Below, one piece after another: positions 25,347-64,000 of a stretch of DNA of 64,000 nucleotides. The translations under genes were made by a program, and so were the position numbers. The notes under the pieces were generated by a model. It did not search any database. It saw only the letters and a program-made list of their open reading frames with translations, and was not told the origin of the DNA. Numbering within the stretch: the stretch's first letter is position 1; each line of letters opens with the position of its first letter. This DNA is from a virus. Taxonomy: Duplodnaviria; Caudoviricetes. The stretch spans positions 274,511 through 338,510 of the IMG/VR virus record IMGVR_UViG_3300046786_000293. One strand, given 5' to 3'.

Positions 25347-26342
25347 TTAAGTATTTAGTAGATTGTAATCGGTCAATCGAGAGACCAAATTTGCTCTAAA
25401 TGAATCTGACAAAAAGTATTCTCTATTATACTCTATTTCTTTAATTTTGGCAGCGAATAAATCTGCCAGATTATTGTAAATTTTATCTAATAGCTCTAAC
25501 ATACAATCTATTCTAACCATCATATCGCTATGTGATTCGTAAGCATGATTATCTAGTATATCGTCGAAGCATTCAAACCCCAATGATCGCAATGTGTCTA
25601 GACTATTCTTGCCGTTTACTGAAAGAAACAATTGGCCTGCGGCTAATGGCTTACAAGTTTTTTCACTAAAGAACGTATATGTATATGCAGACTCTGTGAT
25701 TAAATTTAAATAGCAATCTGCAAATGCCGGGTGATAAAATGAATGATCGTTGTCCCAGTGATTATCGCCAGGCACACATTCTTTATACATTTGTGTTTTT
25801 GATATTTTATCGCATACTTCTAAAGGCAAATGATTTACACCCAATTGAAACGCAGTTAACTCTTGTCCATTGTAGGGATTTTTAAAACCATAACAACTTA
25901 CTAAGTTATTTTTGTCTAATTCTTTTTCCAATAGTCGATATACCAAATACAGTCTATGTGGTGCGGGATATCTATTTAAACTACTAAAATTATATTTTCT
26001 ATTAGACGATATAGTGTAATCATGCTTAGAATATTCTAGACTAGATGCATATAGCCATCCGGGAAAAAATATAATGCGGTCTTCTTGATAAGTTGCATCA
26101 GCAGTTAGATAATAAACATCTGCGCCTATTTGTTGATCTAATATATTTTTTACATCTATTAGATTTGGCGGTTGAACGCTACGATCATGATCTTTGGTAA
26201 AATCTAAAATGACTGGACCATTGATCTTATTAAGAATATCTTTGTGATTTAAGTTATTGGATTGATCGAAGAGTTGTTGTGTTTGAAAATCAAAAATTAC
26301 CGGTATGCATGTATACCGGTAATCGGGGCGCCTAAAAATCAT
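25347..26342 (-). CDS. glycosyltransferase-like protein (GT-B, GT10/exostosin-like)
   Basis: FSSLNRYPAPHR...LNLITES...FFSEKTCKPL pattern. Confidence 0.5.
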   Translation of the reverse strand: MIFRRPDYRYTCIPVIFDFQTQQLFDQSNNLNHKDILNKINGPVILDFTKDHDRSVQPPNLIDVKNILDQQIGADVYYLTADATYQEDRIIFFPGWLYASSLEYSKHDYTISSNRKYNFSSLNRYPAPHRLYLVYRLLEKELDKNNLVSCYGFKNPYNGQELTAFQLGVNHLPLEVCDKISKTQMYKECVPGDNHWDNDHSFYHPAFADCYLNLITESAYTYTFFSEKTCKPLAAGQLFLSVNGKNSLDTLRSLGFECFDDILDNHAYESHSDMMVRIDCMLELLDKIYNNLADLFAAKIKEIEYNREYFLSDSFRANLVSRLTDYNLLNT

Positions 26343-26777
26343 TTATTTTAAACTAGAACGTAACATCCATGCATGTTTGTCATGAGCGTCCATGCGCTCT
26401 GCCAAGAAGTTGCTTAAGCCATGCTTGCCTTCGCGTTCGGATAAGTCATAGACTAGTTTTAGTACTCTAACAATTTTTCCGCTGTCTTCTAATAGTTCCG
26501 CTACCATTGCTTCTTTTGGTGGAACTTGTGTTTCGTCGTCGATTTGACTTAGCATACTTAGACGACTAAAACTAGCAGGAGTATAACTGCCTAACTTACG
26601 AATATTCTCTCCAAATGGATCGATGCTGTCCAACACTTCTTCGTATATCTTACCAAATAAATCATGATATTCTAAAAAGTCAGATCCTTCTACGTTGAAG
26701 TGGAAGAAATGTGCTTTTAGATAAAATGCAAATTCTGTACTGTATGCAATTTTCATTGCTTTAATTAGTTCATCCAT
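26343..26777 (-). CDS. dps: Dps / mini-ferritin
   Basis: KAHFFHFNVEG..FLEYHDLFGKIYEE..DPFGENIR, HAWML. Confidence 0.9.
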   Translation of the reverse strand: MDELIKAMKIAYSTEFAFYLKAHFFHFNVEGSDFLEYHDLFGKIYEEVLDSIDPFGENIRKLGSYTPASFSRLSMLSQIDDETQVPPKEAMVAELLEDSGKIVRVLKLVYDLSEREGKHGLSNFLAERMDAHDKHAWMLRSSLK

Positions 26778-28755
26778 TTTTCTTTACCTTCTTAACTCGT
26801 TGTTGTCCACGTGGTACGCTACCTACAGGGCTAACGAAATTATCATCGCCTATTGTAGCCGCACTAACTGTATGCTTACTTAAATCATATTCAGTAAATG
26901 TGCGTGTTGCTTCTAAATATAATTTTTTAAAGTTTTGGTTGCTTTCACTTAGGAACCAACCATTATTGTCTTTTCTAAGTCCGAACTTGTTGCGTAGTTC
27001 TCCTGCGCTGGTTCCGGATATTTTAAAATAGCGACGACTTTCGCTGATACTATTGTTTGTTCTTTGTAGTCTTTCCAGTACATCTTGTACAGCCAGATCT
27101 AAGTCGCTCATGCTGCCGATTTCGCCGTATTTGTCTACAACGTCCATAATAGCGTCTCCGACTACTTCGTGTCCAAATTGACGTACAACATCCCCCTCTA
27201 TTTGATTTAGTGCCTTGAAAATAGCATCGGCTAAATCTAGTCCGCTGATTGTTTCGCTAATTGGAATGTTTTGAATATCTAATATAGCCGCTGGCTTAGG
27301 ACCACCACCGCCCGAAGTTGGTGGCTTAGGTGGAGTACGTTGTCCGCTTGGTGGTACATACACTTGTTGTGGTGGATATGTTCTGGTAGGTTGTGTGCTT
27401 AGTACAGGAGTAACAGGACCTATACGTTGTTCCGCCATGCTTTGCTTCTGACGCCACACACTGGAATTCTTTAGTCTGCTGGTTGAACCCCAAGCAATGC
27501 TACGACCGTTGAATACAAAAATCAATTTGTTCAACACCACAGCAGGGCTATGTGGATCTGAGCCAAACTCGCCAGAAACATCACCTATCTTACGAGCACC
27601 CTTGGACTCCAAGAACTTCCAAAACTTTTCAACTGCTTTGGCTTTATGCCACTTGGGTTGATCCTCTGGTTTCAAATCACGGTCAATAAAAATGTATCCT
27701 GGGTCTTTGTATCGTGAGCCATCACCACGAGTCCACATTCTCATACCGGGATTTTTATAATCCATTGGATAGTATGGGCTCCCGCTCATTTGTTTATTAA
27801 ATTCAGAGATTAGGCCTCTAATAAAATCAATGGTAGGAGATTCGGTTATAGTATCTTCCGCCACACCTGAATCAGGTCTTGCTGTCATCATGGCACCGGG
27901 ATCAATATTGCCCTTGTTGTCATAACGATGCTGAACACCCTTCTTACCTGCTTTGACTAGTCTTTCCATTGCGGCTTTGGCATCACGATAGTTATCGTGT
28001 GTGGTGGTCTTGATCCAATCACCACTTGAATTGCGATAGCCTACATGAATTTTGCCTTCCGCCACACCTTTAACATCCCAGGTTTTATGGCACTGGTGAC
28101 ATTCCTTCTCGCCATCACTGTATGTTTTTATGTCGGTGGAATGACAACGCGGGCACTGGTATTGTTTGCCCAGACGACCTTCGTTGCCATCATCGCGGAT
28201 TGGGTGTTCTTCGTCATCGTAGCCTTCCGCCACACCTTGACTTTTACTACGATTAAAATCTCTTGTTGCTTGACGACTTCTGGCGCGGGTGCTCGGTTCT
28301 TTGTATGCTCTCCAACGATCAACCTTTGTGCCACACTTGGTGCAATGTAATACACCATCCATGTCATCGTGGATGCTGGTTTCTTGATACTTGCCCTTCT
28401 TACACTTTTCGCAAGTCTGACCAGTCATATCTTTTTGTGTAGAGCCTTCCTCCACACCTTGCTTGGTTCTAATAATCTCACGGTCAAGGGCTCTGATCTC
28501 TGATTTCAAATCAACTAATCTTAACTCACCATTTTCTAATGCTCGTTTAATCCCCAATTTAGTATCAACTAAATCAGTAACTGACATATTTTGAATCTGA
28601 CTTAGTAGGTCTGCATAATACCCAGCATAATAATCATTGGTATCGTCATCGTCTAAACCTTCAGACACACCTTCATTTAAATGTGTGCAATTGCAAGGCG
28701 TTTGCCCGCACACATTACACATATCTCTACTTTCAAAAAAATCAAATAATTTCAT
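26770..28755 (-). CDS. modular putative internal head (cargo) polyprotein with Zn-ribbon cassettes
   Basis: Leader MKLFDFFE; modules separated by GVSE/GVEE/GVAE linkers; several CxxC pairs. Confidence 0.7.
   Translation of the reverse strand: MKLFDFFESRDMCNVCGQTPCNCTHLNEGVSEGLDDDDTNDYYAGYYADLLSQIQNMSVTDLVDTKLGIKRALENGELRLVDLKSEIRALDREIIRTKQGVEEGSTQKDMTGQTCEKCKKGKYQETSIHDDMDGVLHCTKCGTKVDRWRAYKEPSTRARSRQATRDFNRSKSQGVAEGYDDEEHPIRDDGNEGRLGKQYQCPRCHSTDIKTYSDGEKECHQCHKTWDVKGVAEGKIHVGYRNSSGDWIKTTTHDNYRDAKAAMERLVKAGKKGVQHRYDNKGNIDPGAMMTARPDSGVAEDTITESPTIDFIRGLISEFNKQMSGSPYYPMDYKNPGMRMWTRGDGSRYKDPGYIFIDRDLKPEDQPKWHKAKAVEKFWKFLESKGARKIGDVSGEFGSDPHSPAVVLNKLIFVFNGRSIAWGSTSRLKNSSVWRQKQSMAEQRIGPVTPVLSTQPTRTYPPQQVYVPPSGQRTPPKPPTSGGGGPKPAAILDIQNIPISETISGLDLADAIFKALNQIEGDVVRQFGHEVVGDAIMDVVDKYGEIGSMSDLDLAVQDVLERLQRTNNSISESRRYFKISGTSAGELRNKFGLRKDNNGWFLSESNQNFKKLYLEATRTFTEYDLSKHTVSAATIGDDNFVSPVGSVPRGQQRVKKVKKNG
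27855..28674 (-). repeat. five in-frame copies of AGGTGTGGCGGAAG (G-V-A-E linker)
   Basis: Cores at 27855, 28056 and 28224 (exact), 28446 (1 mismatch) and 28659 (degenerate); spacings 201, 168, 222 and 213 nt. Confidence 0.9.
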
Positions 28756-28756
28756 A

Positions 28757-31048
28757 TTACTTTCCTTGCCTTGCCAACATTGCTGCATTACTTAGTGCTG
28801 TTTTTAGAGCAGGTGCAGATTGCGGACTTTCTGCAGCCTTGGCAATTAACGGTGTTAGTGCGCTCATAGACATAGATTCAGGCGAAGTTAATGGTTTATT
28901 ATCGCTTATTTTTGTAACTGCACTGCTTAATGTATTTGTATCTACTTTTGGACCTAGTACACTAGATAAACCGCTCATCGTGCTTTTGGCAGTAGATACA
29001 TCTTGCATTTGGTCTAATTGTTGTTGTTTTACAGCAGCAGGATCTTGTTGTACGCTTGTTTGGCTTGTGATTTGTATATCTGGATCCTGTTTATTAACTG
29101 CGGGATCTTCTACTTCATTTGTCTTTTTGCGATCTAACGCACGTAATTTTTGTGCAAGTTTGGCTATATCTACTGGACCATGTTCACGTTCTTGTTTTTG
29201 TACAAGTTTTTTAACACGAGCAATCATGTTATCAAAATCATCTGGATCATAGCGGCTTGCTATTAAATTGTCATCTTTGTTTTCTTTCATTCCTGAACGA
29301 TACCCTGTGTGTTGTACGTGTACTGGATCATTGGGGAGAAATCCTAAATTATACTTATCACCCTTTGGATCATTTTTTGCCAACCAATTGCGTAATGCCG
29401 CAATTTGGTCTGCTCTTGCGTCAATTGCATGGGCTTTGTGGCTTTCGGGATCTTTAGGAGGAGCCCCGTAAACACCAGGTCTTCCTGCTTTATAATCTCG
29501 ATGAAGTTTTTCCTGTTCTGCGGCTGTTCTTGCTGAGCTAGTAACGGTTATTGGTATACCCGAATCTTTGCTGGCACGTTCTAAATTAGATCTGAATGTT
29601 GAATCTAATTTTGTATAACGATCAGCTTGTTTAGCATCGGCGAATCCGAAGTGACTAGGAGAAGTATCTAATGCTTCGATGTTTTTTGGATTTTTTACGT
29701 GCCAACGACCGTCGTCTGACTTGTAAGTACCGTCAGATTGTTTAGTGAAACTTACGTTAATATTTTTTGTTGGATCTGAAGGATCCTTTACATCTCTGAA
29801 TAACTTGGTTCCTGGAAGATGTCCAGTAATCTTAGTAGGAGTTTGTTGATCTGCAGGAGTAGATGCAGCAGCCGAGGCCTGGCTTGGGACTGTTTGAGTA
29901 GAAGCGGGTGCAGGTGCGGCTGTTTTAGTTGCCGGTTGAGTAGCAGTAGGCGTAGGTGCAGAACTTGCGGCGGTTTTGTTAACAACTCGTTCACCGGGTG
30001 ACAAAGAATCTGCCGTGCTCACCGAAGGAGTTGGTGTTGTACTTCTTGTAGTCGGTGCCGCCGAAGTGTTTGTTCGTGTAGATGTTGCAGGAGTTTGAGC
30101 ATTGGGGTCAACGCTACTACCACCAATTTCACCTCTTCGTACTTTTGCAGCAATTTTTTCTAATGTGTCCCCGGGACTAACTATATGCTTTTCGGTGCTT
30201 CCAGGTAATTTAATTTCTTGCCCGGGATAAATTTTATTAGGATTCTTGATAGCTGGATTACTCTTCCAAACTTCTTGCCAACTTCCTGGAGCAGGATTTT
30301 TTGGCATTTGTGGAATAACTGGAGCAGCAGGTTTGGTTGGTGCTGGCGCGGTTGCAGTTGTGGCTGGGGGCAAAGGTTGTGAAGTAATTTTAACGGGCTC
30401 TGCGACAGGTTTAACTTCTGGACCAGGTACAACGGTGCTAGGTGCAGGTTGTGCTACAGGTTGTTGTGCTACGGTAGTTCCTGGTTCGCGTGCTATACTT
30501 TGATCTCTGTCCGGACTTACTAGATCTGCTGCCTTTGCTACATTAATTTGACCACCAGAGCCAACTGGTGCGCCTGAGCCACTTCTAACTGGCTCACCGG
30601 TACTTGTTTGTACTACAGGGGGATTTTTATCTAAGTATGTTCTTATTTCATCTTGTGTAGCAGGTTGCATACCCATACGTTGACGAACGATAGGATCTAT
30701 TCCTGTATATGTAGGAGTCTTACTGGCATTCCATTGTTTATCTAATTCTGCTTTAGGTAAATCAGGACCACTGGAGGCTCTTAACGCTGCCCAATCATTT
30801 GCTGTATTATTGGTTTCTTCTTTAAACTTATTAAATTTTTCTAATAAGGACCACTCGGTGACTTTTTCTTTAGCAGTATTGTGTAGATCTTTTATTATAC
30901 TTTCTTCGCAGCCACCGACCATTTTAGATTTGGCTTTGCTAGCAGGATCAGTACCTTTCCAGTAGCCGGGAAATTTAGGACCTGTAGATTTTTTAGCAGC
31001 CTTTTCCATGCTATCTACTGCTTCTAAAAGTTTACGCATATTGGTCAT
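28757..31048 (-). CDS. putative virion/ejected protein with permuted LysM and M15 (D-Ala-D-Ala/L-Ala-D-Glu) peptidase domains
   Basis: Leader MTNMRKLLE; NPNKIYPGQEIKLP/VSPGDTLEKIA; VTSSARTAAEQ..SHKAHAID..PVH; long Pro/Thr/Ala linkers. Confidence 0.75.
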   Translation of the reverse strand: MTNMRKLLEAVDSMEKAAKKSTGPKFPGYWKGTDPASKAKSKMVGGCEESIIKDLHNTAKEKVTEWSLLEKFNKFKEETNNTANDWAALRASSGPDLPKAELDKQWNASKTPTYTGIDPIVRQRMGMQPATQDEIRTYLDKNPPVVQTSTGEPVRSGSGAPVGSGGQINVAKAADLVSPDRDQSIAREPGTTVAQQPVAQPAPSTVVPGPEVKPVAEPVKITSQPLPPATTATAPAPTKPAAPVIPQMPKNPAPGSWQEVWKSNPAIKNPNKIYPGQEIKLPGSTEKHIVSPGDTLEKIAAKVRRGEIGGSSVDPNAQTPATSTRTNTSAAPTTRSTTPTPSVSTADSLSPGERVVNKTAASSAPTPTATQPATKTAAPAPASTQTVPSQASAAASTPADQQTPTKITGHLPGTKLFRDVKDPSDPTKNINVSFTKQSDGTYKSDDGRWHVKNPKNIEALDTSPSHFGFADAKQADRYTKLDSTFRSNLERASKDSGIPITVTSSARTAAEQEKLHRDYKAGRPGVYGAPPKDPESHKAHAIDARADQIAALRNWLAKNDPKGDKYNLGFLPNDPVHVQHTGYRSGMKENKDDNLIASRYDPDDFDNMIARVKKLVQKQEREHGPVDIAKLAQKLRALDRKKTNEVEDPAVNKQDPDIQITSQTSVQQDPAAVKQQQLDQMQDVSTAKSTMSGLSSVLGPKVDTNTLSSAVTKISDNKPLTSPESMSMSALTPLIAKAAESPQSAPALKTALSNAAMLARQGK

Positions 31049-33015
31049 TTTATTTTTCTTTTATCGTACGGTACTTTAAAGTCATTGATAAATTCTTTAA
31101 ATTCTTTAACAGCTCCAGGTATACCTCCAGGAGTTATTCTATGTAAACGTTCAATCCAGTCGTCATTTTTTGAACTACCAGATCCTACTCCTGGCCCAGT
31201 ACCTGTTCCTACACCGCCACCGGTACCTCCGCCGGACCCACTGCTTTGTTGTGAATCTTTTTCTTTATCTTTACCAGACGCTGCGGGCGCAAAGGTAGGC
31301 TCGCTTGCTGGTTTTTGCTGTGGTGTTGCTTGTGGCTTAACAGGCTCAGGTTGCGGCTTTACTTGAGGTTTAGTAGGCTCAGGTTGCGGTTTTACTGGTT
31401 CAGGCTCAACGGCAATGTCTGCGGGTTTTGTAACTGGAGGCAAATCTTCTGGTCTCCATATTTCGACAGGCATCGGTACAGTTTGTGATGTTGGTTCTGC
31501 GGCAGGTTCTTGATCTACTTTGCCTTGCCCTTGTCCTTCTTTACCGCCGCCGCCTGTAGTCATTGAAGCACCCACAGGCACAGCCGCTGGGCTCCACATT
31601 TTTTTATCGCCTTGCATTTTGGGCGGTAAAGGTTCGTCAGCTCTTGACGTCGATGTTGGAGGTTTAATTGGCTGGTCATCCCCTGGTCTTGTTTGCATTA
31701 ATTCTTGATCTCGGCGACGGGCCTGTGCTTGTGTGCGTGCGGGATTAATTCGAATTGGATTGGCTATAATAGGAGCATTGGCTGAGGTTGTTGCTCCCGG
31801 TGCAACTTGAGAAGGCTCATTAACAACTTTTAATCTAGGTTTTGGCCCTGCAGGAACTTCTGCACCTTGTGGCATAGCTGAAGGTTGTCCCGCTCTTTGA
31901 TAAGCAGGAACTTCAACATTTGCTGGTGTGCGAGGCACAGGTCCCGGAGTAACTCTTGGTCCACTTACTACAGCCCCGCCAGCTCCGCCTGGCGGAAACT
32001 CTAAAGGTATTGTAGTTGGTTTAAAAGGACCTTTGGTTTGTTCTTTTAACTTTCGGCTGCTAATAGGAAAGTTTGTACTTAAAAATTCTTCAAATTCTTC
32101 AGCAACCTTTTTAGTTGCTTGCTCTTTGATCGCTCCAGGTATACCACCCGGTGTTATTCTATGTAAACGTTCAATCCAATCCCCGTCGGGAGTTTTATAA
32201 TATGTTGGTTCTTGTTGTGCAACTGCTACCGGCGCCGCAGCTAATTGCCCAGGTCTACCCGGACCTGATGGTTCGTTAGGTCTTGTTGCTAGTTGTGTCT
32301 GCGGGGCAAGTTCGGGCTCGGTGTCGGGCTGCGATGATGTTGCTATACCACGCTGTTGTAATAAATTTAATTCTGCTTTTAAATTGGGATCATCGGGAGT
32401 CTTTTCGAGTTCACGTCGGACGTCCTTGGCATACTGTTGATCAGCAAATGATGGTTTGTTCCCACCGCCTGCGGCAGTAGAATACACGTTTGAGTATTCA
32501 CTTCCTGCGCCAACTTTTACACGAGGTTGTGGCTTTGTTAAAGTAGATACTGTGGCAGATTGTTTTGGTATGCTAGGTTCATTTGCTGCAACCGGTGCAG
32601 CCTTTGCAAATTTAGTGTCCGGTCCAGTACCGCCAATTACACCCAACGGTTGCGGCGGAGTTGTACCAGCAGCCTTTCGCATATAGGCCGGTTCTTTAGC
32701 ACCTTTTGGATCTAACCATGGTTGCTTAGGTGTATATGCTGGAGTTTCTGGATCTATAGAGGGCGGTAATGTAAGTGGTAATGATTTTTGCCCAGGTGCA
32801 GGTGTTGTTGCCCCGGTAGCAGGCTTCTGTGTTGGCTCGACAGGTTTTGTTAATTGCTGACCCATCATATTGAATGCTTTATTACCGGCTGGTATGTTAG
32901 TTAATGTACCTATGGGTAACTTTTGTTGAGAGGGAAAATCATAGACTTTTTTCGCCGCCTGTCCTTGTTCGGCAAGTTTATCTAATGACTCTAACAAACG
33001 ACGGATGTCTGACAT
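31045..33015 (-). CDS. Pro/Gly-rich putative internal head protein
   Basis: Leader MSDIRRLLE; low complexity; duplicated DWIERLHRITPGGIPGA(I/V)KE. Confidence 0.7.
   Translation of the reverse strand: MSDIRRLLESLDKLAEQGQAAKKVYDFPSQQKLPIGTLTNIPAGNKAFNMMGQQLTKPVEPTQKPATGATTPAPGQKSLPLTLPPSIDPETPAYTPKQPWLDPKGAKEPAYMRKAAGTTPPQPLGVIGGTGPDTKFAKAAPVAANEPSIPKQSATVSTLTKPQPRVKVGAGSEYSNVYSTAAGGGNKPSFADQQYAKDVRRELEKTPDDPNLKAELNLLQQRGIATSSQPDTEPELAPQTQLATRPNEPSGPGRPGQLAAAPVAVAQQEPTYYKTPDGDWIERLHRITPGGIPGAIKEQATKKVAEEFEEFLSTNFPISSRKLKEQTKGPFKPTTIPLEFPPGGAGGAVVSGPRVTPGPVPRTPANVEVPAYQRAGQPSAMPQGAEVPAGPKPRLKVVNEPSQVAPGATTSANAPIIANPIRINPARTQAQARRRDQELMQTRPGDDQPIKPPTSTSRADEPLPPKMQGDKKMWSPAAVPVGASMTTGGGGKEGQGQGKVDQEPAAEPTSQTVPMPVEIWRPEDLPPVTKPADIAVEPEPVKPQPEPTKPQVKPQPEPVKPQATPQQKPASEPTFAPAASGKDKEKDSQQSSGSGGGTGGGVGTGTGPGVGSGSSKNDDWIERLHRITPGGIPGAVKEFKEFINDFKVPYDKRKIK
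31103..32181 (-). repeat. ~59 nt direct repeat (31103-31161 and 32123-32181), 1020 nt apart
   Basis: Both copies encode DWIERLHRITPGGIPGA(V/I)KE; differences are mostly synonymous. Confidence 0.9.
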
Positions 33016-33785
33016 TACTTTGCCTTTGTTTGCTTTTGCTTGTATGTACCGCCAAACAACGAACCTACTTTGGCTTTGTTCTTTGCTGGGGGATTCACTA
33101 CAGTGGCCACGCTGCCTGCTGACATTTCATTCACTGTTGCTTCCGCCACACCTTTCCAGTCAGTTTCGCCGCCCAAATCATCAATATACATTGCTTGTTT
33201 GATAATGTTCAGTAGATACTTCTTTGCTTCTGGTGTAGGTGCCATCTTAGCATATTGCTTTGCTGTGTAGTCGTCACCATTCTCTAACGCATCTCTAACA
33301 TCTTGCTCAAGGCGTGTTGTGTCAGGATCCCATCCTTCTGCCACACCTTGTTCACGCTCTGCCTGACGCTTTGCCCAACGCTCTTTGTTGCGCTGAACTT
33401 GTTGAGGACTTGCTTTCTTTTCTTTGCTTAGGTCACGATGCAGTGCTTTACCTAGTGCGCTAGTATGCGGATTCTTTTCAGACTCCGCCACAGGCATAGC
33501 ATCGCCAACTACGGCAACTACTTCTTCAGCAGGACCACCGCTCATTAATTGATATTCTAAGTGTTCACGGACGGTGTTTAGATAGTCTGCAGCCAGGGTA
33601 ATTTTACTGCTTACCCAACCTTCTAAGCCTTGTTGTTCACTAACATGGCGTAGTAGTTTGTGTAATGCAATTGCGTCTTCTGCAGCATGATACAGTTCTT
33701 TTCGAGCCATTTGCACTTCATGATCTAAGTGCATTTCGTGTGCATCTTCGGCAATGCCTTCATTTAAAAAATCTAAACTTTTCAT
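33015..33785 (-). CDS. modular putative internal head protein
   Basis: Leader MKSLDFLNEGIAE; PVAE, QGVAEG and KGVAEA linkers. Confidence 0.72.
   Translation of the reverse strand: MKSLDFLNEGIAEDAHEMHLDHEVQMARKELYHAAEDAIALHKLLRHVSEQQGLEGWVSSKITLAADYLNTVREHLEYQLMSGGPAEEVVAVVGDAMPVAESEKNPHTSALGKALHRDLSKEKKASPQQVQRNKERWAKRQAEREQGVAEGWDPDTTRLEQDVRDALENGDDYTAKQYAKMAPTPEAKKYLLNIIKQAMYIDDLGGETDWKGVAEATVNEMSAGSVATVVNPPAKNKAKVGSLFGGTYKQKQTKAK
33140..33348 (-). repeat. two further copies of the AGGTGTGGC(G/A)GAAG linker repeat
   Basis: 33140-33153 exact, 33335-33348 one mismatch; 195 nt apart. Confidence 0.9.
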
Positions 33786-33808
33786 AGTATGTTTCCGTGA
33801 TTATAGTA

Positions 33809-33814
33809 TATTTA
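33809..33814 (-). promoter_or_regulatory. late-promoter-like TAAATA box
   Basis: AATAAATA overlapping the stop of 33812..34123, upstream of the internal-protein genes. Confidence 0.55.
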
Positions 33815-34123
33815 TTCGCTGATAACGAATCGACCTTTTGATGGGGATTCCACAATAATATCGTCTACCATTAAGTTGGTGAAGTAAAACCCTCTAAAAC
33901 TTGGATCTAGTGATTCTAATTTGACTTCATGATTCCCTGCAGTTAAATTAACCCATATGTTTTCTTTTACAAATTGTCCATTAGTTGTAGTAGGAGGTTT
34001 TGCATTAGACCAAATATATGTACGTTCAGTAATTAAATCACCGTCTAAATAAATTCTATAAACTGGATTTTCGTTGCCGTGTTTATGACAAAAAACATCT
34101 ATATTGATTTTATATTCTTTCAT
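33812..34123 (-). CDS. hypothetical beta-rich protein
   Basis: MKEYKINID start with an ATGA overlap to the upstream stop. Confidence 0.65.
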   Translation of the reverse strand: MKEYKINIDVFCHKHGNENPVYRIYLDGDLITERTYIWSNAKPPTTTNGQFVKENIWVNLTAGNHEVKLESLDPSFRGFYFTNLMVDDIIVESPSKGRFVISE

Positions 34124-36726
34124 TTTTCTCTGCCTCGACGCATATTTGCTTGCCAATGTGCTAATTGTTTTTTACGGGGACTAGCAGTTTTTGAACGTGT
34201 AATTTTATCTAGAGTAGACAAACTTGCTTTTTTGGGAATACCATGTCTTGCTGAATCGCCTTTGTCTTGGGGATTACGACCGTCAGCAAAGTTTTCTGCC
34301 ACGTTGAATGTTGGATCTACTTTTTGACGCGGCATATTTTTAGGCTGATTAGGATCAACGGGATCTATATCTGTAGTAGTTAGTCCAGTTTTTTCTAAAT
34401 CTTTAATATACTTGTGTTCTTCTTCTTCGCTACCAAAAGAAAACATGGTGCTAGGAGGTCCCTTTCCAAAGTCATGTTTGCCTAACCCTTTTAAGTTACT
34501 AATATGCTGTCCTAGCTTATACCAATCATAAACGTCCGATACATCTACTCTGACAGATCCTTGAGGCATAGTGGGTTTAAATTCTGGGCCGTAGGGAGTG
34601 TCGTTTGGGTGTCTATCTTCGTTCTTCTTTCTGCCAGCACAGTGAGCTTTTTGACTAAAGCCTTTGGGATCGGAGCAATTAATAGAACTCTTATATTCTT
34701 TGCTCCACGATTCGTCTAACTCTAACGGCTTAGATTTAATAGCGTTGGGATACTTCTTGTTGAAGTGCCGCATAATAATACCAGCGACCCAATGTGCTTC
34801 GTTTTCAATTGGACTTCCAGTATCACCTGCACCGTCATACATTTTACCTTGTTCGTATTGTTTGAAGTGTACCATTTCATGTGCTAGTGTTCTTAGAATA
34901 TCTACAGGGTGCCTATCGGCAATGCCAAGATATATTTTTTCTTCTTCATTAACAAAACGACCGAATGTTGCTTGCCCGTCGTTGGATTTGATGTGCGGTT
35001 GTAAAACAATATGTGGGATTTCTTTAAGTTTAAGTTCTTTCATTGCCAAGGGCATAAACTCTTTAATCATCGCCATCATATCTTCTTCAGTAACACTACG
35101 ATTATTTTTTGCTTCTTCTTTAACAACATTGCCTAAAAATGTACGGGCAAATGTTTTACACATTTTTACAATAGCAGGATTACGTGTTTGCATAACATGA
35201 AATGTTTTATTCATGTCTTCTTCTTGTGTAGGGTCTTTATATCCGCAATATACTTTGTGGCAGTCTGTATCGTTAATGATCTCTGTGCAACTGTCTCCGT
35301 AACGATCGTCCATCGGGTGACAGCATGGACTTAGAGTTGTAAGAATAATACTGCCTGCAGGTACACGACCGTGCTCTGCTTCGTAGTTCATTATTGCGGC
35401 ACGTTCGGCATGTATACGTTTGTCCTTACCGTCGTCGAAGTAGTTAATACCAAAGGCGAAATTATTATCAGGATCAAGTACACAGGCTGCAACCATGCCA
35501 AATGCATCGGCGTTTAGTTTTTGTCCCTCTACTACCATTTCGCATAAGTTAACTAGGATATGATCCAATTTGTCAAAGTTTTTAATTTCAAAATCTTCGG
35601 GGTTTATTCGCGCTGAGAAATCTTCTGCCAGTCTAAAATCACGTAGCATATTTTTTGGTGTGCGAGGCTTAACATCTTTAGTAATGCTCATCGAATATCT
35701 TGGGTCTTTGGCCATCTTCTTATTCTTAGCCACAACACCGACTCCGGCAGCATCCTCTGACATTTCTTGCTTTAATGCACGAATAACATCTCCTGCGAGC
35801 TGAGTTAAACTACGTTGGGGTCCTGCTTGAAAAACTTTTTGGGCTAAGTTTTCAACATACTCGTTGCCAAATTTTTCAAATATACCAGGTTGCATTTCAC
35901 GCAAAAATTCTAATATCTGTGCAGTTCTATCTTGGTCGAATTCTTTCCAATCGTGATAATGTTTTTCGTCTGTTTCTTCTATGTCAGCAATTTCATGAAA
36001 TACCCTTGCACCGCTAATAGGACTAGAACTATAGTTACTGTCAACTTGTCCTATGTCTTCACTGACTGCGGCAGGAATCTTATTAAAAATATGTACTAGT
36101 TCAGACGTAGCACGGCCATATAATCCTGCCAAAAATTCTTTTGAGGATTCCGGATCATTCCGTACCATATTCCACAAATTACGACATTCTGTGCCGTGAC
36201 TCACATCATATGTTTTGCCTTTGATGTTTACCGCTTTTTTAATTTCGGGGATAACAATCACATAACCGTGTTGGTCGGCAGTCATCGGGGCGTGACTTTC
36301 ATCCCATGTTTTGTAATAGCTTGCGCTGCCTGCAGGCTTGATTACGTTTCCGTCTTTGTCTTTTTGATCACGCTTTGTAAATGTATCGGGATTTAAGCGA
36401 TCTTTATCGGGGGCACCTACAGCAGTAACAAATATAGTACTGGAAGGATCAAATCCTGCAGGTAGCTTGTACATTTGATTTGTTTCAATGATGCGATCAC
36501 CGGGCACGCCGGCTGCTGTCATTAATTGGTATTTGTCGGAAAAGTTAAATGGACTTTTAGCGCTAGACTGGTCATTACTAGTTAAAATGTAGACGCTGTC
36601 GCGACCAAATTGCTTTTGTAATTTTGCAAAAACTCCGGCGTGCCCTTGGTGAAAAGGCTGAAAACGTCCAGGATAAGTTACAACAACTTGTGGCTTACCA
36701 GCCTCATATAATTCGTGTGCGTACAT
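34120..36726 (-). CDS. multidomain putative cargo polyprotein: HIGH nucleotidyltransferase, Zn-deaminase and HExxH metallopeptidase
   Basis: YPGRFQPFHQGH; HAE...SPC(x11)C; LAHEMVH; domains delimited by VSE, MSE, LAE, VTEE, LDE and VAE. Confidence 0.75.
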   Translation of the reverse strand: MYAHELYEAGKPQVVVTYPGRFQPFHQGHAGVFAKLQKQFGRDSVYILTSNDQSSAKSPFNFSDKYQLMTAAGVPGDRIIETNQMYKLPAGFDPSSTIFVTAVGAPDKDRLNPDTFTKRDQKDKDGNVIKPAGSASYYKTWDESHAPMTADQHGYVIVIPEIKKAVNIKGKTYDVSHGTECRNLWNMVRNDPESSKEFLAGLYGRATSELVHIFNKIPAAVSEDIGQVDSNYSSSPISGARVFHEIADIEETDEKHYHDWKEFDQDRTAQILEFLREMQPGIFEKFGNEYVENLAQKVFQAGPQRSLTQLAGDVIRALKQEMSEDAAGVGVVAKNKKMAKDPRYSMSITKDVKPRTPKNMLRDFRLAEDFSARINPEDFEIKNFDKLDHILVNLCEMVVEGQKLNADAFGMVAACVLDPDNNFAFGINYFDDGKDKRIHAERAAIMNYEAEHGRVPAGSIILTTLSPCCHPMDDRYGDSCTEIINDTDCHKVYCGYKDPTQEEDMNKTFHVMQTRNPAIVKMCKTFARTFLGNVVKEEAKNNRSVTEEDMMAMIKEFMPLAMKELKLKEIPHIVLQPHIKSNDGQATFGRFVNEEEKIYLGIADRHPVDILRTLAHEMVHFKQYEQGKMYDGAGDTGSPIENEAHWVAGIIMRHFNKKYPNAIKSKPLELDESWSKEYKSSINCSDPKGFSQKAHCAGRKKNEDRHPNDTPYGPEFKPTMPQGSVRVDVSDVYDWYKLGQHISNLKGLGKHDFGKGPPSTMFSFGSEEEEHKYIKDLEKTGLTTTDIDPVDPNQPKNMPRQKVDPTFNVAENFADGRNPQDKGDSARHGIPKKASLSTLDKITRSKTASPRKKQLAHWQANMRRGREK

Positions 36727-36749
36727 ACTACAATTTTAGGTTATTGTAG

Positions 36750-36755
36750 TATTTA
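36750..36755 (-). promoter_or_regulatory. late-promoter-like TAAATA box
   Basis: GCTAAATA about 24 nt upstream of the 868 aa gene. Confidence 0.5.
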
Positions 36756-36759
36756 GCGA

Positions 36760-38364: not shown

Positions 38365-39118
38365 GATCGGGATTACTTAGTTTATAAATTCCGGCAATGC
38401 ATTCGGGTGCTATTAGATTAATAAAAGTTACAATTTTTTCATCTTTGGCATAAAAATATCCGCCGGGGAACCACATATGATTGCTACCTAAATGTTTTAC
38501 CAAACTTTTAGTAAGGCATACTTCGTCGTCGCCAAGATTGTACAAATAGTCTAATAGAGTCCGTTTAGTTTCGACGTCTTTAATTTTATTTTCCCTAAGC
38601 ATAATTTTATATTGAAATTCGGGATAACTCTTAAAGATAATCTCTCCTCGATTTAATATTTCTATACTTTTTTCATTTGCAGGAGAATGTATTTCTTCAA
38701 CTCTTTCGGGATAGTTTTTCACTAATAAACAGTACAATAGTTCTTGATCATTGCAATAAACTGATAAATTAGGTTCCTCTAATCTAAGTTTAATTGAACC
38801 TTTTAGTGCATTTCTAATAGATATCCAATATTCAAGTTGATCTATTCTTGCATGAACTTTCAAATATTCTACACGTCTTTGAGTATAACTACTAGACCAA
38901 GATCCAATTCTATAATTAGCAGTTGACTCCAATAAGTTTATTCGTTGATTGAGTAGATGTTCTACTCCTTTATACAGAATTTTATTGTCGTTTATAATTC
39001 TACACCCAGGTGTATGAACTACTGCTTTGTATAGATATTGATTAAAAAATTTCTTTTTTGTCTCTATACATTTAACAGTTGGATTTAATTGCGTCCAGAA
39101 CGATGTATCCATTTTCAT
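38360..39118 (-). CDS. hypothetical protein
   Basis: 252 aa ORF downstream of clpA. Confidence 0.7.
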   Translation of the reverse strand: MKMDTSFWTQLNPTVKCIETKKKFFNQYLYKAVVHTPGCRIINDNKILYKGVEHLLNQRINLLESTANYRIGSWSSSYTQRRVEYLKVHARIDQLEYWISIRNALKGSIKLRLEEPNLSVYCNDQELLYCLLVKNYPERVEEIHSPANEKSIEILNRGEIIFKSYPEFQYKIMLRENKIKDVETKRTLLDYLYNLGDDEVCLTKSLVKHLGSNHMWFPGGYFYAKDEKIVTFINLIAPECIAGIYKLSNPDL

Positions 39119-41366
39119 CCGTTAACGATTGTGTAGGGAAAACTATGTATTCGTTTTCTTTAATTTCAAATTCTAATTTATCTTTATAGTCAACATTAAC
39201 TAAACAGTTAGCAACATTTTCAAATAGAATCTTTTTACTCAAAGGCACTTTAATTAGTTCGTTAATCTTTCGACCCAACGGACGAGCACCCATTTTACTA
39301 TCATACCCTTGACTAATGATATAATCTGTAGCTGCTTCTGACAAAGTAACACGTATACGTTTATCGCTAAGTAGTTCATTCATTTCACTAACAAACTTAT
39401 AAACAATCTTACGAACATTAACAGAATCTAGTTTGTTAAACTTGATAATACCATCTAATCGATTACGAAACTCTGGCTTAAAGAAATCTTTAACAGCCTT
39501 GTCATCTTCACCTGTCTTCTCTAGACTACGACCAAAACCGATACTGTTGCGTTCGTTGTCAGCGGCTCCTAAGTTACTTGTTAGAATAACTACAGCATTA
39601 CGGCAATCTGCCTTCTTGCCGTTGCTACTAGTAATCATGCCCTCATCCATTAAACTAAGAAGCAAATTGCTAACATCCGGGTGGGCTTTTTCAATCTCGT
39701 CGAAAAGAATAATACAATTAGGATTCTTTTCAACATCACTAATAAGCAATCCGCCGCCTAAATTACCATCATCATAGCCGATATACCCGGGGGGAGCGCC
39801 AATCAGTTTTGCAACCGAGTGGCGTTCTTGGTACTCACTCATGTCATATCTTAATAGTTTCATCCCGAGATTCTCTGCCAGCAACTTTGCTAGTTCAGTT
39901 TTACCTGTGCCAGTTGGACCTAAGAATAGGAATGATCCAACCGGTTTATTCAGTGCTTTAAGGCCAGCACGTGACACATAAATTTTATCCAGCACATCTA
40001 TTACAGCCTGATCTTGTCCGTAAAGTTTACCTTTAATATTACCTTCAAGGTCTCCTAGATTTTTAACTGCATCAGTGTCTAATTGTTCTACTGGAATTTT
40101 AGTAAACTTACTTAACGAATCGATAATATGACTCTTACGAACCACAAACCCTGTAGTGGAAATTTTTAGTTTAGCAGCCGCAGTATCAATTAAATCAATG
40201 GCTTTGTCGGGTAATCTCTTATCTGTTTGATAACGAACACTAAGATCCACTGAGGCATCGATTGCTTCGTCGCTGATATCGCCGCCATGAAATTCTTCAA
40301 AATACTCTTTAAGTCCTTTAAGAATCTGTTTTGCAACTTCTGGTGTCGGTTCCTCTACAGTCATACGATAGAAGCGACGCATCAATGCACGGTCCTTTTC
40401 GAAGCTTTGACTGTATTCTTCCCAAGTGGTGCTAGCAATAACTTTAACGCGGCCCTTAGTTAATGCAGGCTTAATAATATTAGCAAAGTCTGGCCCGCTT
40501 TGGCTACCACTACCAGCGCCTCGCATAGTATGTGCTTCGTCGATAAACAAAATGGCTTTACCTTTGGCATTTAAAGCCTTGATAATTTCTTTAATTTTTT
40601 CTTCAAAGTCTCCGCGATATTTACTACCTGCAAGAATACTGCTAATATCTAAATTATATACTGTGTGATCTTTAAGATATTCAGGTACTTCACCTTTAGT
40701 AATATTAAGGGCAAGTCCTTCTGCAATTGCAGTCTTACCTACACCAGGATCGCCGACCATTAGAACGTTACTCTTATTGCGCTTGGCTAGTACCTGTGTA
40801 ATTTCGTCGATTTCGTTATTACGACCAATGATGGGATCAATACGACCTTGTTCTGCTGCATCGTTCAGGTTATCGCAGTATTCTTCTAAAATAGTATCTG
40901 CTGTGCTTCTGGTTTTCTTTTTAGTTTTGTTTTCTGCAAAATTCTTATTCCAAAAGTTAACAACTTTGGCTCGTTCTAGTCCAAATCTAACTAACAGATA
41001 TCGAGCATAACTCTTATCTTCTGCCATAATACTAAGGAATAAGTCAATAGTTTGCAAGTTTTGTCGTCCACTAAACAGGACTTGTGTAAATGCTCTATTA
41101 AACACACGTTCTAAACTGTGCGTTTTTTTCGGAACAATGTCGTATCCTTTACTAATTAGAAATGTTTGAGTAGTTAAATAATCATCTATTTCTTTTATAA
41201 GTAGATCTACATCACAACCAAAGTTGACTAGTATTTCTTTAAAGGACTCATTAGTAACCATTGCATGAAGCAAATGTTCTAACGTCACATATTCGTGGTT
41301 TTTATTGGCTGCATATTGTGTAGCCGATTCGATCATTAGATCAATCTCTGGACTTGTTTGTAGCAT
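39072..41366 (-). CDS. clpA: ATP-dependent Clp protease ATPase subunit
   Basis: Clp N-domain (HEYVTLEHLL), AAA1 GDPGVGKT, AAA2 GPTGTGKT, IGF loop, GARPL. Confidence 0.95.
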   Translation of the reverse strand: MLQTSPEIDLMIESATQYAANKNHEYVTLEHLLHAMVTNESFKEILVNFGCDVDLLIKEIDDYLTTQTFLISKGYDIVPKKTHSLERVFNRAFTQVLFSGRQNLQTIDLFLSIMAEDKSYARYLLVRFGLERAKVVNFWNKNFAENKTKKKTRSTADTILEEYCDNLNDAAEQGRIDPIIGRNNEIDEITQVLAKRNKSNVLMVGDPGVGKTAIAEGLALNITKGEVPEYLKDHTVYNLDISSILAGSKYRGDFEEKIKEIIKALNAKGKAILFIDEAHTMRGAGSGSQSGPDFANIIKPALTKGRVKVIASTTWEEYSQSFEKDRALMRRFYRMTVEEPTPEVAKQILKGLKEYFEEFHGGDISDEAIDASVDLSVRYQTDKRLPDKAIDLIDTAAAKLKISTTGFVVRKSHIIDSLSKFTKIPVEQLDTDAVKNLGDLEGNIKGKLYGQDQAVIDVLDKIYVSRAGLKALNKPVGSFLFLGPTGTGKTELAKLLAENLGMKLLRYDMSEYQERHSVAKLIGAPPGYIGYDDGNLGGGLLISDVEKNPNCIILFDEIEKAHPDVSNLLLSLMDEGMITSSNGKKADCRNAVVILTSNLGAADNERNSIGFGRSLEKTGEDDKAVKDFFKPEFRNRLDGIIKFNKLDSVNVRKIVYKFVSEMNELLSDKRIRVTLSEAATDYIISQGYDSKMGARPLGRKINELIKVPLSKKILFENVANCLVNVDYKDKLEFEIKENEYIVFPTQSLTDENGYIVLDAIKSNC

Positions 41367-62355: not shown

Positions 62356-64000
62356 TTATAATATCACTGCTTCAATCATTTTTTCACCGATATCGTCGCT
62401 CGATTCTAATGCTATACCAAATACATCATTAGAGTGAGGTACACCTGCAACTGCACATCCGTTATTGTGAGCAATAAGTCGTTGACCTTTTCTAACTATG
62501 CCAACCACTCTTACTGGTACACGACCCTTTAGTGCAACTGCTTGACCATTTGCTTCGTTATTCATTAAGTAAGCAGGTTTTTCGCTGATTACACCAATTG
62601 CTCGGTCCCCGTAATTACTAGAAGTTACTTCGGCATCGCCACCCACAACTATTACAGTGCCCACTGGATATTCTTTATCTGTAACATATTTTTCTGCCAA
62701 GTCGGCATAGTTTGCTTGATTACTAACTGTAGTTAATATACCAGAACTAGGATTAAAACTTAATTTGGTAGTCGATGCTGTAGCAGTCTGGTTACTGCCT
62801 GTTGATCCCACAAATACTGGATAGAAAGCTGCATTAGTTGTTATGTCGTTAGTAGCATTAATTGTTGTACTTGGCCCAGTGGGTCCTTGTGGTCCAGTAT
62901 TTCCGATTGGTCCAATTGGGCCCTGTGGTCCTTGCGGCCCTGTATTACCGATTGGTCCAATAGGTCCTTGTGGCCCTTGTGGCCCTGTATTACCGATTGG
63001 TCCAATTGGGCCCTGTGGTCCTTGCGGCCCTGTATTACCGATTGGTCCAATAGGTCCTTGTGGCCCTTGTGGACCTGTATTACCGATAGGTCCAATTGGT
63101 CCTTGTGGCCCTTGTGGCCCTGTATTACCGATTGGTCCAATTGGGCCCTGTGGACCTTGTGGTCCGCGTGGCCCTTGTGGTCCTGTATTACCGATAGGTC
63201 CAATTGGTCCTTGTGGTCCTGTGTTACCGATAGGCCCAATTGGTCCTTGTGGTCCTTGTGGCCCTGTATTACCGATAGGCCCAATTGGTCCTTGCGGTCC
63301 TATAGGTCCTTGTGGTCCTTGTGGTCCTTGCGGCCCTGTGTTACCGATAGGACCAATTGGTCCTTGCGGTCCAGTTGGTCCTTGTGGTCCTTGTGGCCCT
63401 GTGTTACCAATAGGCCCAGTTGGCCCTTGCGGCCCGGTTGGTCCTTGCGGCCCGGTGCTTCCTATTGGTCCTTGTGGTCCTTGTGGTCCTTGCGGCCCGG
63501 TGCTTCCTATTGGTCCTTGTGGCCCTTGTGGTCCCTGAGGTCCTGTATTGCCGATAGGTCCGATAGGACCTTGTGGACCTTGTGGTCCAGTTGGCCCTTG
63601 TACACCCTGATTACCTTGCGGACCTTGTGGGCCAGTGGGTCCCTGTGGTCCTAAATCACCTTGTGGTCCTTGCGGACCTGTGCTACCTTGTGGGCCAGTA
63701 GGTCCTTGTGGGCCGGGAACGTTACTTACACCGCTAGGTCCTTGTGGTCCTTGCGGGCCCTGTGGCCCTTGAGGTCCTCCTGCAGGACCAATTGGTCCCT
63801 GTGGCCCTTGCGGGCCCTGTGGACCAGAACCAGATCCTTCGGGACCTTGTGGCCCTTGTACACCCTGTGGTCCGTGCGGCCCAGTTTCGCCCTGTGGGCC
63901 TTGTGGACCGGTATTACCAATCGGTCCTTGAGGTCCTTGGACACCTTGATTTCCTTGTGGTCCTTGCGGGCCAACTGTTCCTTGTGGTCCTTGCACACCT
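62356..64000 (-). CDS. collagen-like tail fibre with a C-terminal chaperone/peptidase-like domain (5' end outside the window)
   Basis: Uninterrupted G-X-Y run; C-terminal [34 protein letters not shown]; frame open to the window edge. Confidence 0.85.
62878..64000 (-). repeat. collagen triplet repeat ([12 protein letters not shown])
   Basis: Tandem 9-nt codon units; higher-order unit [15 protein letters not shown]. Confidence 0.95.

Follow-up and report, generated by a model that had tools for sequence, protein, structure and literature searches.

Leader-bearing modular genes as candidate head cargo of a T4-like jumbo phage, with a joint conserved as protein and as DNA

A 338-kb T4-like jumbo phage encodes about 17 proteins that begin with a short leader ending in hydrophobic-x-Glu, and three of the five carriers in the DNA analysed here (a window of 64,000 nt) are bead-like strings of unrelated modules. 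By analogy with T4, we think it moderately probable that the leader-bearing proteins are head cargo and that the three bead-like ones are cut at their joints by a gp21-type protease. The phage belongs to a Rak2/PA5oct-like lineage with a T4 core, its capsid protein being 65-70% identical to those of Vibrio phage 2.275.O, PA5oct and GAP32, and about 75 related loci are available in IMG/VR, on contigs from lakes and estuaries. Against cultured phages, megablast of the region gave no match, and tblastn of the five proteins gave scattered single-module matches or none; the match in a Variovorax phage is a single zinc ribbon with no joint.

The five large ORFs named by a previous sequence-only reading of this DNA are all present, and all lie on the minus strand (Table 1). 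Its leader sequences were also quoted correctly. In the first ORF as listed (26770-28788, 672 aa), MKLFDFFE begins at an internal Met, and the likely true start at 28755, which has AAGGAAAG ahead of it and lies one base past the stop of the gene upstream, gives a protein of 661 aa. The claim of a single late-promoter-led run did not survive, as two late-promoter-like motifs were found. A 103-aa ORF without a leader breaks the run of leader-bearing genes; this ORF and a 160-aa neighbour were considered as paralogues, and this was rejected. Upstream of the leader genes of the window there is no T4 late promoter of canonical form (TATAAATA); a looser xTAAATAy is present instead. Within 45 nt upstream of the start, the motif [ACT]TAAATA[CT] occurs in 8 of 17 leader genes vs. 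37 of 374 other genes, and the portal and tail-fibre genes have the same late-promoter-like motif upstream.

Table 1. Positions of genes, modules, joints and promoter-like motifs in the window (a slash marks the proposed cut after Glu)
Feature	Position	Strand	Remarks
868-aa enzyme polyprotein	34120..36726	minus	leader MYAHELYE; nucleotidyltransferase, helical, deaminase, zincin, Cys and D modules; basic tail
868 aa: leader, residues 1-8, LYE/A	36703..36726	minus	pLDDT <50 at residues 1-7
868 aa: cytidylyl/adenylyltransferase-like domain, residues 9-223	36058..36702	minus	PFHQGH; PF01467 6.8e-8; folded 8-220; end AVSE/D
868 aa: disordered stretch and helical module, residues 224-324	35755..36057	minus	helices 260-322; end EMSE/D
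868 aa: cytidine/dCMP-type zinc deaminase, residues 369-547	35086..35622	minus	HAE, PCC...C; PF00383 1.7e-10
868 aa: minimal zincin metallopeptidase, residues 548-672	34711..35085	minus	HEMVH; fold match; end ELDE/S
868 aa: small Cys module, residues 673-702	34621..34710	minus	WSKEYK...CAGRKKNE; recurrent in related loci
868 aa: conserved D module, residues 703-811	34294..34620	minus	in most of 65 related loci; alpha/beta in model; end NVAE/N
868 aa: basic C-terminal tail module, residues 812-868	34123..34293	minus	NFADGRNP...; recurrent; pLDDT <50 at joint
763-aa protein	28757..31048	minus	leader MTNMRKLLE; LysM; M15-like peptidase motif; conserved C-terminal domain
656-aa Pro-rich protein	31045..33015	minus	leader MSDIRRLLE; Gly tract; 20-aa internal repeat
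661-aa bead polyprotein	26770..28755	minus	leader MKLFDFFE; two zinc-ribbon modules; basic C-terminus
256-aa bead polyprotein	33015..33785	minus	leader MKSLDFLNE; basic C-terminus
661-aa gene: DNA joint (GVSEG)	28658..28671	minus	2 mismatches to consensus 14-mer
661-aa gene: DNA joint (GVEEG)	28445..28458	minus	1 mismatch, GCG to GAG
661-aa gene: DNA joint GGTGTGGCGGAAGG	28223..28236	minus	exact
661-aa gene: DNA joint GGTGTGGCGGAAGG	28055..28068	minus	exact
661-aa gene: DNA joint (GVAED)	27854..27867	minus	1 mismatch
256-aa gene: DNA joint GGTGTGGCAGAAGG (GVAEG)	33334..33347	minus	
256-aa gene: DNA joint GGTGTGGCGGAAGC (GVAEA)	33139..33152	minus	
Late-promoter-like motif CTAAATAC	36749..36756	minus	22 nt upstream of 868-aa gene
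Second late-promoter-like motif ATAAATAT	33808..33815	minus	22 nt upstream of 256-aa gene

The leaders are 8-10 residues long, and those of the five window proteins end in FFE/S, LLE/A, LLE/S, LNE/G and LYE/A. They are more frequent than chance predicts, 10 proteins of the genome having an N-terminus of the strict form M[KR]xx[DE][ILVF][ILVFK]x(1-3)E, vs. 0.15 expected, and the carriers genome-wide (the five in the window and about 12 others) total about 7,700 aa. Judged by their sequences, the leaders are one genome-wide family, beyond chance. A basic C-terminal tail accompanies the leader in 13 of the 17 proteins and is found in 28 of 374 others. The proposed likeness to the T4 capsid targeting sequence, MKTYQEFIAE, which is present twice in the T4 record NC_000866, is borne out as a comparison of sequences. 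A Sec-type signal peptide was rejected, the leaders being short, acidic and non-hydrophobic.

Joints within the proteins require a narrower definition than the hydrophobic-x-Glu junctions listed in the sequence-only reading. Because the generic triplet [ILVM]-x-E is so common (1581 occurrences in 103,459 aa of proteome, or 15 per 1000 aa), that list is not significant as such. What stands is the form GV[AES]E[GDA], which occurs seven times in the whole proteome, each time (7/7) inside the 661-aa (listed as 672-aa) or the 256-aa protein; the joint consensus, Gln-Gly-Val-Ala-Glu-Gly (QGVAEG), is near-invariant. Given how often hydrophobic-x-E occurs, chance could account for many of the joints that are not of the GVAE type. 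Ahead of the D module, and likewise of the tail, the Glu never varies and might be part of the module itself; the P3 residue ahead of the D module is often non-hydrophobic. A crude test for hydrophobic-x-E at the limits of BLAST blocks was noisy and gave a modest enrichment (24% vs. 17.5% at block starts, 44% vs. 20% at block ends), and was replaced by anchored module comparisons.

Across related loci (L009-L083) the same modules stand in new combinations, and modules that are internal here directly follow a leader elsewhere with the position of the Glu unchanged, as in the zincin and in all 12 contexts (12/12) of the Cys module. Because the same modules occur as single genes right behind a leader, the leader Glu and the joint Glu are positionally equivalent. 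In the 661-aa protein the joints are at E32, E103, E177, E233, E300, E442 (SMAE) and E501 (PISE); its modules are reshuffled in L009-L018, and E501 aligns with the leader Glu in L041. Those of the 256-aa protein are at E101 (PVAE/S), E150 (GVAE/G) and E215 (GVAE/A), and in L009, L012 and L013 single ORFs combine modules of both proteins.

The joint is conserved as DNA as well. Its 14-nt coding sequence occurs seven times in the window vs. 0.09 expected, and its synonymous sites are fixed on rare codons, with GTG (12% of genome usage) in 26 of 30 and GCG (8%) in 26 of 30; variants differ from the consensus by single bases, and module exchange falls exactly at the joint. The DNA joint is absent from the two cultured relatives that were checked, Vibrio phage 2.275.O and S-CREM2, and a full-text literature search for GVAEG returned no phage paper. 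This DNA-level conservation shows that the joint is constrained by something besides protease recognition, and its fixation as GGTGTGGCGGAAGG on rare codons suggests a second role as a recombination seam. More tentatively, QGVAEG may have a dual use, serving as a head-protease site in the protein and, as DNA, supplying the microhomology CAAGGTGTGGCGGAAGG for cargo swaps between co-infecting phages. If so, an entire aquatic lineage of jumbo phages would have in common a combinatorial pool of mini-proteins for injection, re-dealt in ways that keep frame and processing.

The fixed rare codons, the single-base variants and the precision of the swaps would also suit uncut, polyvalent multidomain proteins, in which the joint is no more than a flexible linker and DNA swap seam, with a Glu that plays no part in proteolysis; polyvalent proteins of phages have, moreover, been proposed to be delivered large (PMC5512222). 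We nevertheless regard this as unlikely: A seam leaves unexplained the single-module genes whose leaders end at the same hydrophobic-x-E position; joints of different DNA (LDE, LNE, FEE, VTE) still keep the P1 Glu; and the match to gp21-family cutting after Glu (PMC5694885) would be left without a cause.

The modular construction extends to the 868-aa protein, where the blocks of homology to 65 related loci stop at E8, E223, E324, E368, E537/547, E672, about E702 and E811. When all fragments were aligned by MAFFT to the full-length protein, the N-terminal ones were misaligned; the two halves of the protein were therefore folded separately (AlphaFold), and all proposed joints fall in coil or at pLDDT <50. 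Sequence searches of the protein against the PDB gave no match, and Pfam searches on single modules were largely empty. At residues 9-223, NMN adenylyltransferase models match weakly, under their cut-offs, and the helical module (residues 224-324) has no family match. The deaminase is preceded by RLAE/D and ends in SVTE/E, with pLDDT <50 at residues 322-370 and 532-548. Fold matches of the zincin module (Wss1, Z 9.1; AQ_1354/YbeY, Z 9.2; ArdC peptidase domain, Z 6.5) have middling Z values, and almost all of the top structural matches are zincins; it is a stand-alone gene behind the leader MKVTEILTE or MRAKEFLAE in L070-L076 and L010. The Cys module comes immediately after leaders in L030, L032, L040, L051 and L059, has hydrophobic-x-E two residues ahead of its Trp in each of its contexts, and also forms the C-terminus of SSM2_108 of phage S-SM2. 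Among distinct upstream contexts of the tail module, a Glu stands directly ahead of NFADG in 29 of 29, with a hydrophobic P3 in 23 of 29.

The contention that all five proteins are polyproteins holds for those of 868, 661 and 256 aa, which are bead-like, but not for those of 763 and 656 aa, in which comparison of homologues showed no shuffled modules. The 35 homologues of the 763-aa protein (LysM, 7.9e-7; similarity to VanY just E 0.18) have common N- and C-termini, a lytic transglycosylase replacing the hydrolase in two of them, and the five homologues of the 656-aa protein (621-701 aa) have an invariant N-terminus. Both look like single, conserved families of leader-bearing cargo, the 763-aa one with a swappable hydrolase.

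The prohead protease invoked by the sequence-only reading is represented in the same genome by a gp21-family gene (genome positions 192276-192869; Peptidase_S77, 4e-27; 37% identical to T4 gp21). The catalytic His and Ser motifs, LGELxHP and GVSSRG, are kept around His85 and Ser140. The genes for a gp22-type scaffold and for gp23 adjoin the protease gene, which is encoded in all five large related contigs (5/5). The phage's own capsid propeptide contains LLE/G, LLE/G, ILE/N and LAE/N upstream of the region that aligns to mature T4 gp23. Proteases of the gp21 family cut after Glu (PMC5694885), and the joint, as read from its sequence, conforms to the rule by which the head protease encoded in this genome would cut.

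Packaging, cutting, ejection and the roles of the modules in the host are what we infer from these features, with cutting and packaging in this phage argued from analogy. Under the cargo model, the genes would be made late, and the leader (M-[KR]-x-x-[DE]-hydrophobic-hydrophobic-x-E) would dock each protein to the prohead's scaffolding core, which is of gp22 type. The activated gp21-type protease would then clip the leader after its Glu and, in the proteins of 868, 661 and 256 aa, would also cut after exposed joint Glu residues, at (Q)GVAE/G or at a looser site consisting of hydrophobic-x-E followed by a small or acidic residue. The modules so freed, each about 30-220 aa long, would include a nucleotidyltransferase, a deaminase, a zincin peptidase, zinc ribbons and many that are uncharacterised; they would remain inside the head alongside the DNA and probably exit with it. 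The LysM/cell-wall hydrolase (763 aa) and the Pro-rich protein (656 aa), with the same type of leader, would be carried as single proteins. An experimental hint comes from a distant relative, the cultured T4-like cyanophage S-CREM2: mass spectrometry of its purified virions found the cytidylyltransferase gp154 and the small module protein gp160 (PMC10665884). The leader of gp154 is MKNFSSFLTE, and this protein is distant from the cytidylyltransferase domain here (E 0.006); gp160 shares 65% identity in its last module with the end of a GVAEG polyprotein of L018.

Proteins that are packaged and cut could instead serve the virion itself, as extra scaffold or inner-body mass or as basic peptides for condensing DNA or adjusting the pressure within a very large head. 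The excess of basic tails among leader proteins and the many tiny modules without an enzyme signature agree with such a service, and T4 core proteins are cut to small peptides (PMC5694885). But the intact catalytic motifs of the nucleotidyltransferase, deaminase, zincin and cell-wall hydrolase are ill-suited to filler, and fast turnover of modules among related phages is typical of conflict genes and not of structural parts, which makes this explanation improbable. Processing by the embedded zincin or some other protease in place of the prohead protease is very improbable: a Wss1/ArdC-like zincin does lie inside the 868-aa protein, and self-processing has been proposed for polyvalent proteins such as P1 DdrB (PMC5512222), but the 661- and 256-aa proteins, with the clearest joints, do not carry a peptidase, the zincin frequently stands on its own as a small gene, and the gp21 family is marked out by its P1 Glu.

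If the cargo model is right, the address tag and protease site of T4 have been scaled up in jumbo phages into a modular delivery system, by which enzymes and dozens of uncharacterised mini-proteins would enter the host just as infection begins. The combination of leader, joint and basic tail would then be a sequence rule for predicting which proteins uncultured T4-like phages inject, and would open a large pool of candidate early-acting factors of host takeover or counter-defence, as well as a natural model for designs in which a single gene supplies phage heads with several proteins. For the evolution of such cargo sets, the joint fixed in the DNA would be a concrete point of entry.

The nearest precedent is T4 itself, whose internal proteins, as reportedly described by Mullaney and Black in 1996, pair a capsid targeting sequence with gp21 processing. 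Similarities include a short N-terminal leader, alike in composition and ending in hydrophobic-x-Glu, an encoded gp21-family protease and gp22-type scaffold, late-promoter-like signals, and diverse, fast-changing cargo. Internal proteins IPI-III and Alt of T4, with their targeting sequence and gp21 processing (PMC3012670, PMC5694885), are single small proteins, whereas the predicted system here has up to eight unrelated modules per ORF with internal joints, a far larger cargo set, and a joint with an extended, DNA-fixed consensus of its own.

Polyvalent proteins (Iyer, Burroughs, Anand, de Souza and Aravind 2017, PMC5512222) likewise join unrelated effector-type domains in one mosaic polypeptide, are predicted to be packaged and injected, and include zincins, peptidoglycan hydrolases and enzymes of nucleic acids or nucleotides. 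At least two unrelated effector-type domains occur in the 868-aa protein (nucleotidyltransferase, deaminase and zincin) and in the 763-aa protein (LysM and hydrolase), and the HEMVH module of the former is a zincin of the ArdC/Wss1 type. Unlike the candidate cargo proteins, those in that paper are described with no capsid-targeting leader, prohead-protease joints or conserved joint DNA, and in phages they usually come with MuF or portal domains; a domain search found neither in the proteins here, whose genes are separated from the head module by about 110 kb. Among jumbo phages, phiKZ, 201phi2-1 and SPN3US pack tens of proteins in their heads, where a T4-related protease cuts after Glu at A/S/G-x-E (Thomas et al.; PMC5694885, PMC7411985, PMC10052503). 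Their propeptides are long (about 100 residues or more), unlike the leaders here, and they have no strings of shuffled modules; searches by PHROG, Pfam and tblastn gave no homologues in the phiKZ group.

Polymorphic toxins have junction motifs (VENN of CdiA, PxxxxDPxGL of Rhs) that are conserved as protein and as DNA and act as recombination points for variable modules. Those motifs mark a single boundary, between a constant part for delivery and a variable toxin tip, whereas the joint of this phage repeats many times per protein and matches a protease site.

The leaders, joints and modules of these proteins form a feature set that is real and statistically solid, and by analogy with T4 it is probably best read as head cargo that bears an address of T4 type and joints that a protease can cut. 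Established or published work already covers T4 capsid targeting with gp21 processing, the diversity of T-even internal proteins, giant-phage ejection proteins matured by a protease, and polyvalent proteins; our literature search found neither an account of shuffled cargo polyproteins that open with leaders and are punctuated by joints nor a mention of the QGVAEG joint in any phage paper.

The window forms the final 64 kb of a 338.5-kb IMG/VR record (estimated completeness 97%). The phage encodes a T4-type DNA polymerase, and outside the window its head genes, also of T4 type, run portal, acidic protein, Peptidase_S77 protease, scaffold and gp23 capsid protein. Among cultured phages, comparison of the capsid protein places it closest to Vibrio phage 2.275.O (70%), PA5oct and GAP32, all of them T4-core jumbo phages of the Rak2/PA5oct-like kind. 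With T4 gp21 the protease shares 37% identity, and it retains the LGELxHP and GVSSRG motifs, aligned with the T4 catalytic residues His85 and Ser140; Peptidase_S77 is also encoded by all five large related contigs tested. Four hydrophobic-x-E sites lie within the N-terminal 42 residues of the capsid protein, preceding the region aligned to mature T4 gp23, and the T4 site LTE65/A66 is seen in the same comparison.

All five ORFs named by the sequence-only reading are present on the minus strand, the first having a better start at 28755, where an ATG one base past the upstream stop and behind AAGGAAAG gives the N-terminus MKLFDFFE. A 103-aa ORF without a leader lies between the 868-aa and 256-aa genes. 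Rather than the single late promoter proposed to lead the run, there are two late-promoter-like motifs (see table), and the canonical T4 late promoter TATAAATA was not found at the place of either. The looser motif to which both belong lies no more than 45 nt upstream of 8 of the 17 leader genes vs 37 of 374 other genes, and also upstream of many tail genes. The late-promoter-like octamer HTAAATAY is depleted on both strands of the window (24 copies vs 39 expected), which fits avoidance of stray late promoters. Directly after the 661-aa gene comes a leaderless Dps/ferritin-like gene (PF00210, 2e-17) that probably closes the same late transcript, with a terminator-like hairpin past it. An unfoldase gene lies 2.3 kb upstream of the cargo genes, and a tail-fibre gene runs off the record end.

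Coordinates of the cargo genes and neighbouring features (window positions unless stated)
Feature	Position	Strand	Remark
661-aa protein	26770-28755	-	bead polyprotein
763-aa protein	28757-31048	-
656-aa protein	31045-33015	-
256-aa protein	33015-33785	-	bead polyprotein
868-aa protein	34120-36726	-	bead polyprotein
Late-promoter-like motif CTAAATAC	36749-36756	-	motif search
Late-promoter-like motif ATAAATAT	33808-33815	-	motif search
Bead polyprotein, 461 aa, leader MKVNDVITE, DUF6321 module	genome 139301-140686 (L007:501-1886)	-	SVAEG, GLAEG joints
Dps/ferritin-like gene	26343-26777	-
Terminator-like hairpin	26295-26324
ClpA/ClpB-type double AAA+ unfoldase	39072-41366	-	Clp_N, AAA, AAA_lid_9, AAA_2, ClpB_D2-small
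Collagen-like (Gly-X-Y) tail-fibre gene	62356-63996	-
Gly-X-Y-like repeats similar to those of the tail-fibre gene	genome 180186-181802
T4 capsid targeting sequences	NC_000866, 65689-65718 and 66386-66415

A loose search of the whole genome returned 64 N-termini with some hydrophobic-x-E, a count that carries no information. The strict pattern M[KR]xx[DE][ILVF][ILVFK]x(1-3)E begins 10 proteins vs 0.15 expected, and about 17 leader proteins were judged by eye genome-wide (e.g., MKINEVITE, MKVNDVITE, MRFTEIITE, MRASDIIQE), including two amidoligase proteins and one DUF6267 protein. Among these 17, chosen by leader alone, 13 have a basic tail (net charge of +3 or more over the last ten residues), vs 28 of 374 others (Fisher 5e-11); the basic C-terminus may thus add a further signal to the leader, for sorting or for binding DNA.

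At 15 occurrences per 1000 residues, generic [ILVM]-x-E is so common that the hydrophobic-x-Glu junctions first listed are without weight on their own; what stands is GV[AES]E[GDA], found exactly seven times in the proteome and in cargo proteins only (five in the 661-aa and two in the 256-aa protein). Outside the window, the 461-aa bead polyprotein, likewise a leader protein, carries SVAEG and GLAEG as variants, and its modules recur in the related loci L009-L014. The claim that all five ORFs are polyproteins holds for the 868-, 661- and 256-aa proteins; the 763- and 656-aa proteins belong to conserved families and are candidate single cargo proteins. Throughout the 763-aa family (35 homologues) the N-terminus (MSDIKKLLE...PKFPGYWKGTD) and the C-terminal domain are invariant and a LysM domain is shared; the hydrolase in the middle is swappable, being M15-like here, as judged by its motif alone, and replaced in two relatives by a lytic transglycosylase. 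The 656-aa protein, whose leader is of the same type, represents a Pro-rich family that is likewise conserved; it carries the 20-residue repeat DWIERLHRITPGGIPGA[IV]KE twice, about 350 residues apart, the second copy preceded by a Gly-rich tract.

The strongest argument for processing, drawn from comparison of related loci, is that leader and joint occupy the same position. The zincin module, internal in the 868-aa protein after SVTE, stands alone in L070-L076, L073 and L010 directly behind MKVTEILTE, MRAKEFLAE or MRAKEFLYE. Similarly, the small Cys module, there internal after ELDE, elsewhere follows MRAYEFINE, MRATEFITE, MKINEIITE, MRAFEFLNE or MLLRELISE, and hydrophobic-x-E stands two residues ahead of its Trp in 12 of 12 distinct contexts. 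In every one of 29 contexts the residue before the recurrent basic tail module is Glu (hydrophobic P3 in 23 of 29). Raw BLAST block ends, used as a cruder test, gave only a modestly positive result. The joints are not all equally convincing, since P3 of the D module is often non-hydrophobic.

Homology blocks of the 868-aa protein, across 65 related loci, end at E8, E223, E324, E368, E537/547, E672, about E702 and E811. In two AlphaFold models (mean pLDDT 78.7 and 67.6), all its proposed joints lie between compact units, in coil or where pLDDT drops below 50; the recognisable units include a cytidylyl/adenylyltransferase-like domain, a zinc deaminase and the HEMVH module, modelled as a minimal zincin fold (Wss1 Z 9.1, YbeY-like Z 9.2, ArdC Z 6.5). 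ORFs of the same build, 500-1100 aa long, occur in ten IMG/VR loci that are related to the 661-aa protein; in them (Q)GVAE(G) or one-step variants separate a wide variety of modules, each about 50-150 aa. Modules from different genes here fall within one ORF in related loci, and in L009-L012 a common upstream module is joined to four others downstream that are unrelated to one another.

Purified virions of S-CREM2, a cultured T4-like cyanophage, contain the gp154 cytidylyltransferase, gp155, gp156 and gp160 (PMC10665884). Its gp154 begins MKNFSSFLTE and gp156 MKKLISE, and gp160 closes with a module that shares 65% identity (E 2e-20) with the end of the GVAEG polyprotein in the related locus L018; because gp154 matches the cytidylyl/adenylyltransferase-like domain of this phage only at E 0.006, the link is indirect. 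The S-SRM01 gp258 cytidyltransferase begins MKNFHQFITE, and S-SM2 SSM2_108, between tail-fibre and terminase genes, begins MKTLKQFLKE and ends in the small Cys module. An anti-defence role for the cargo is plausible but unsupported.

The joint is also conserved as DNA. At 30 GVAE sites, sampled via protein homology, the codons are GGT (28), GTG (26), GCG (26) and GAA (30), and genome-wide GTG makes up 12% of Val and GCG 8% of Ala codons. Third-position information over 46 distinct sites is 1.5, 1.36, 1.15 and 2.0 bits, vs 0.1-0.3 in flanking codons, and the variants GVEE, GVVE and GVSE use GAG, GTG and TCG, each one base from GCG. The joint 14-mer occurs seven times in the window vs 0.09 expected. 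Copies of the exact 17-mer are present in no fewer than 119 IMG/VR stretches; across 80 loci inspected, 103 of 103 copies read in frame as QGVAEG, in ORFs of median 527 aa with a median copy spacing of 79 aa and leader-like starts in 36 of 51. Protease recognition cannot account for this fixation at synonymous sites. Read most simply, the joint would also serve as microhomology for module exchange; a translational pause as the reason for the fixed codons fits less well, because the joint's Gly codon is the commonest Gly codon. The microhomology reading likens the joint to the junction motifs of polymorphic toxins, which serve as microhomology for module exchange. The T4 tag MKTYQEFIAE is present twice in the T4 record, and the two capsid targeting sequences are identical across all 30 nucleotides, a parallel to the nucleotide-level conservation of this phage's joint.
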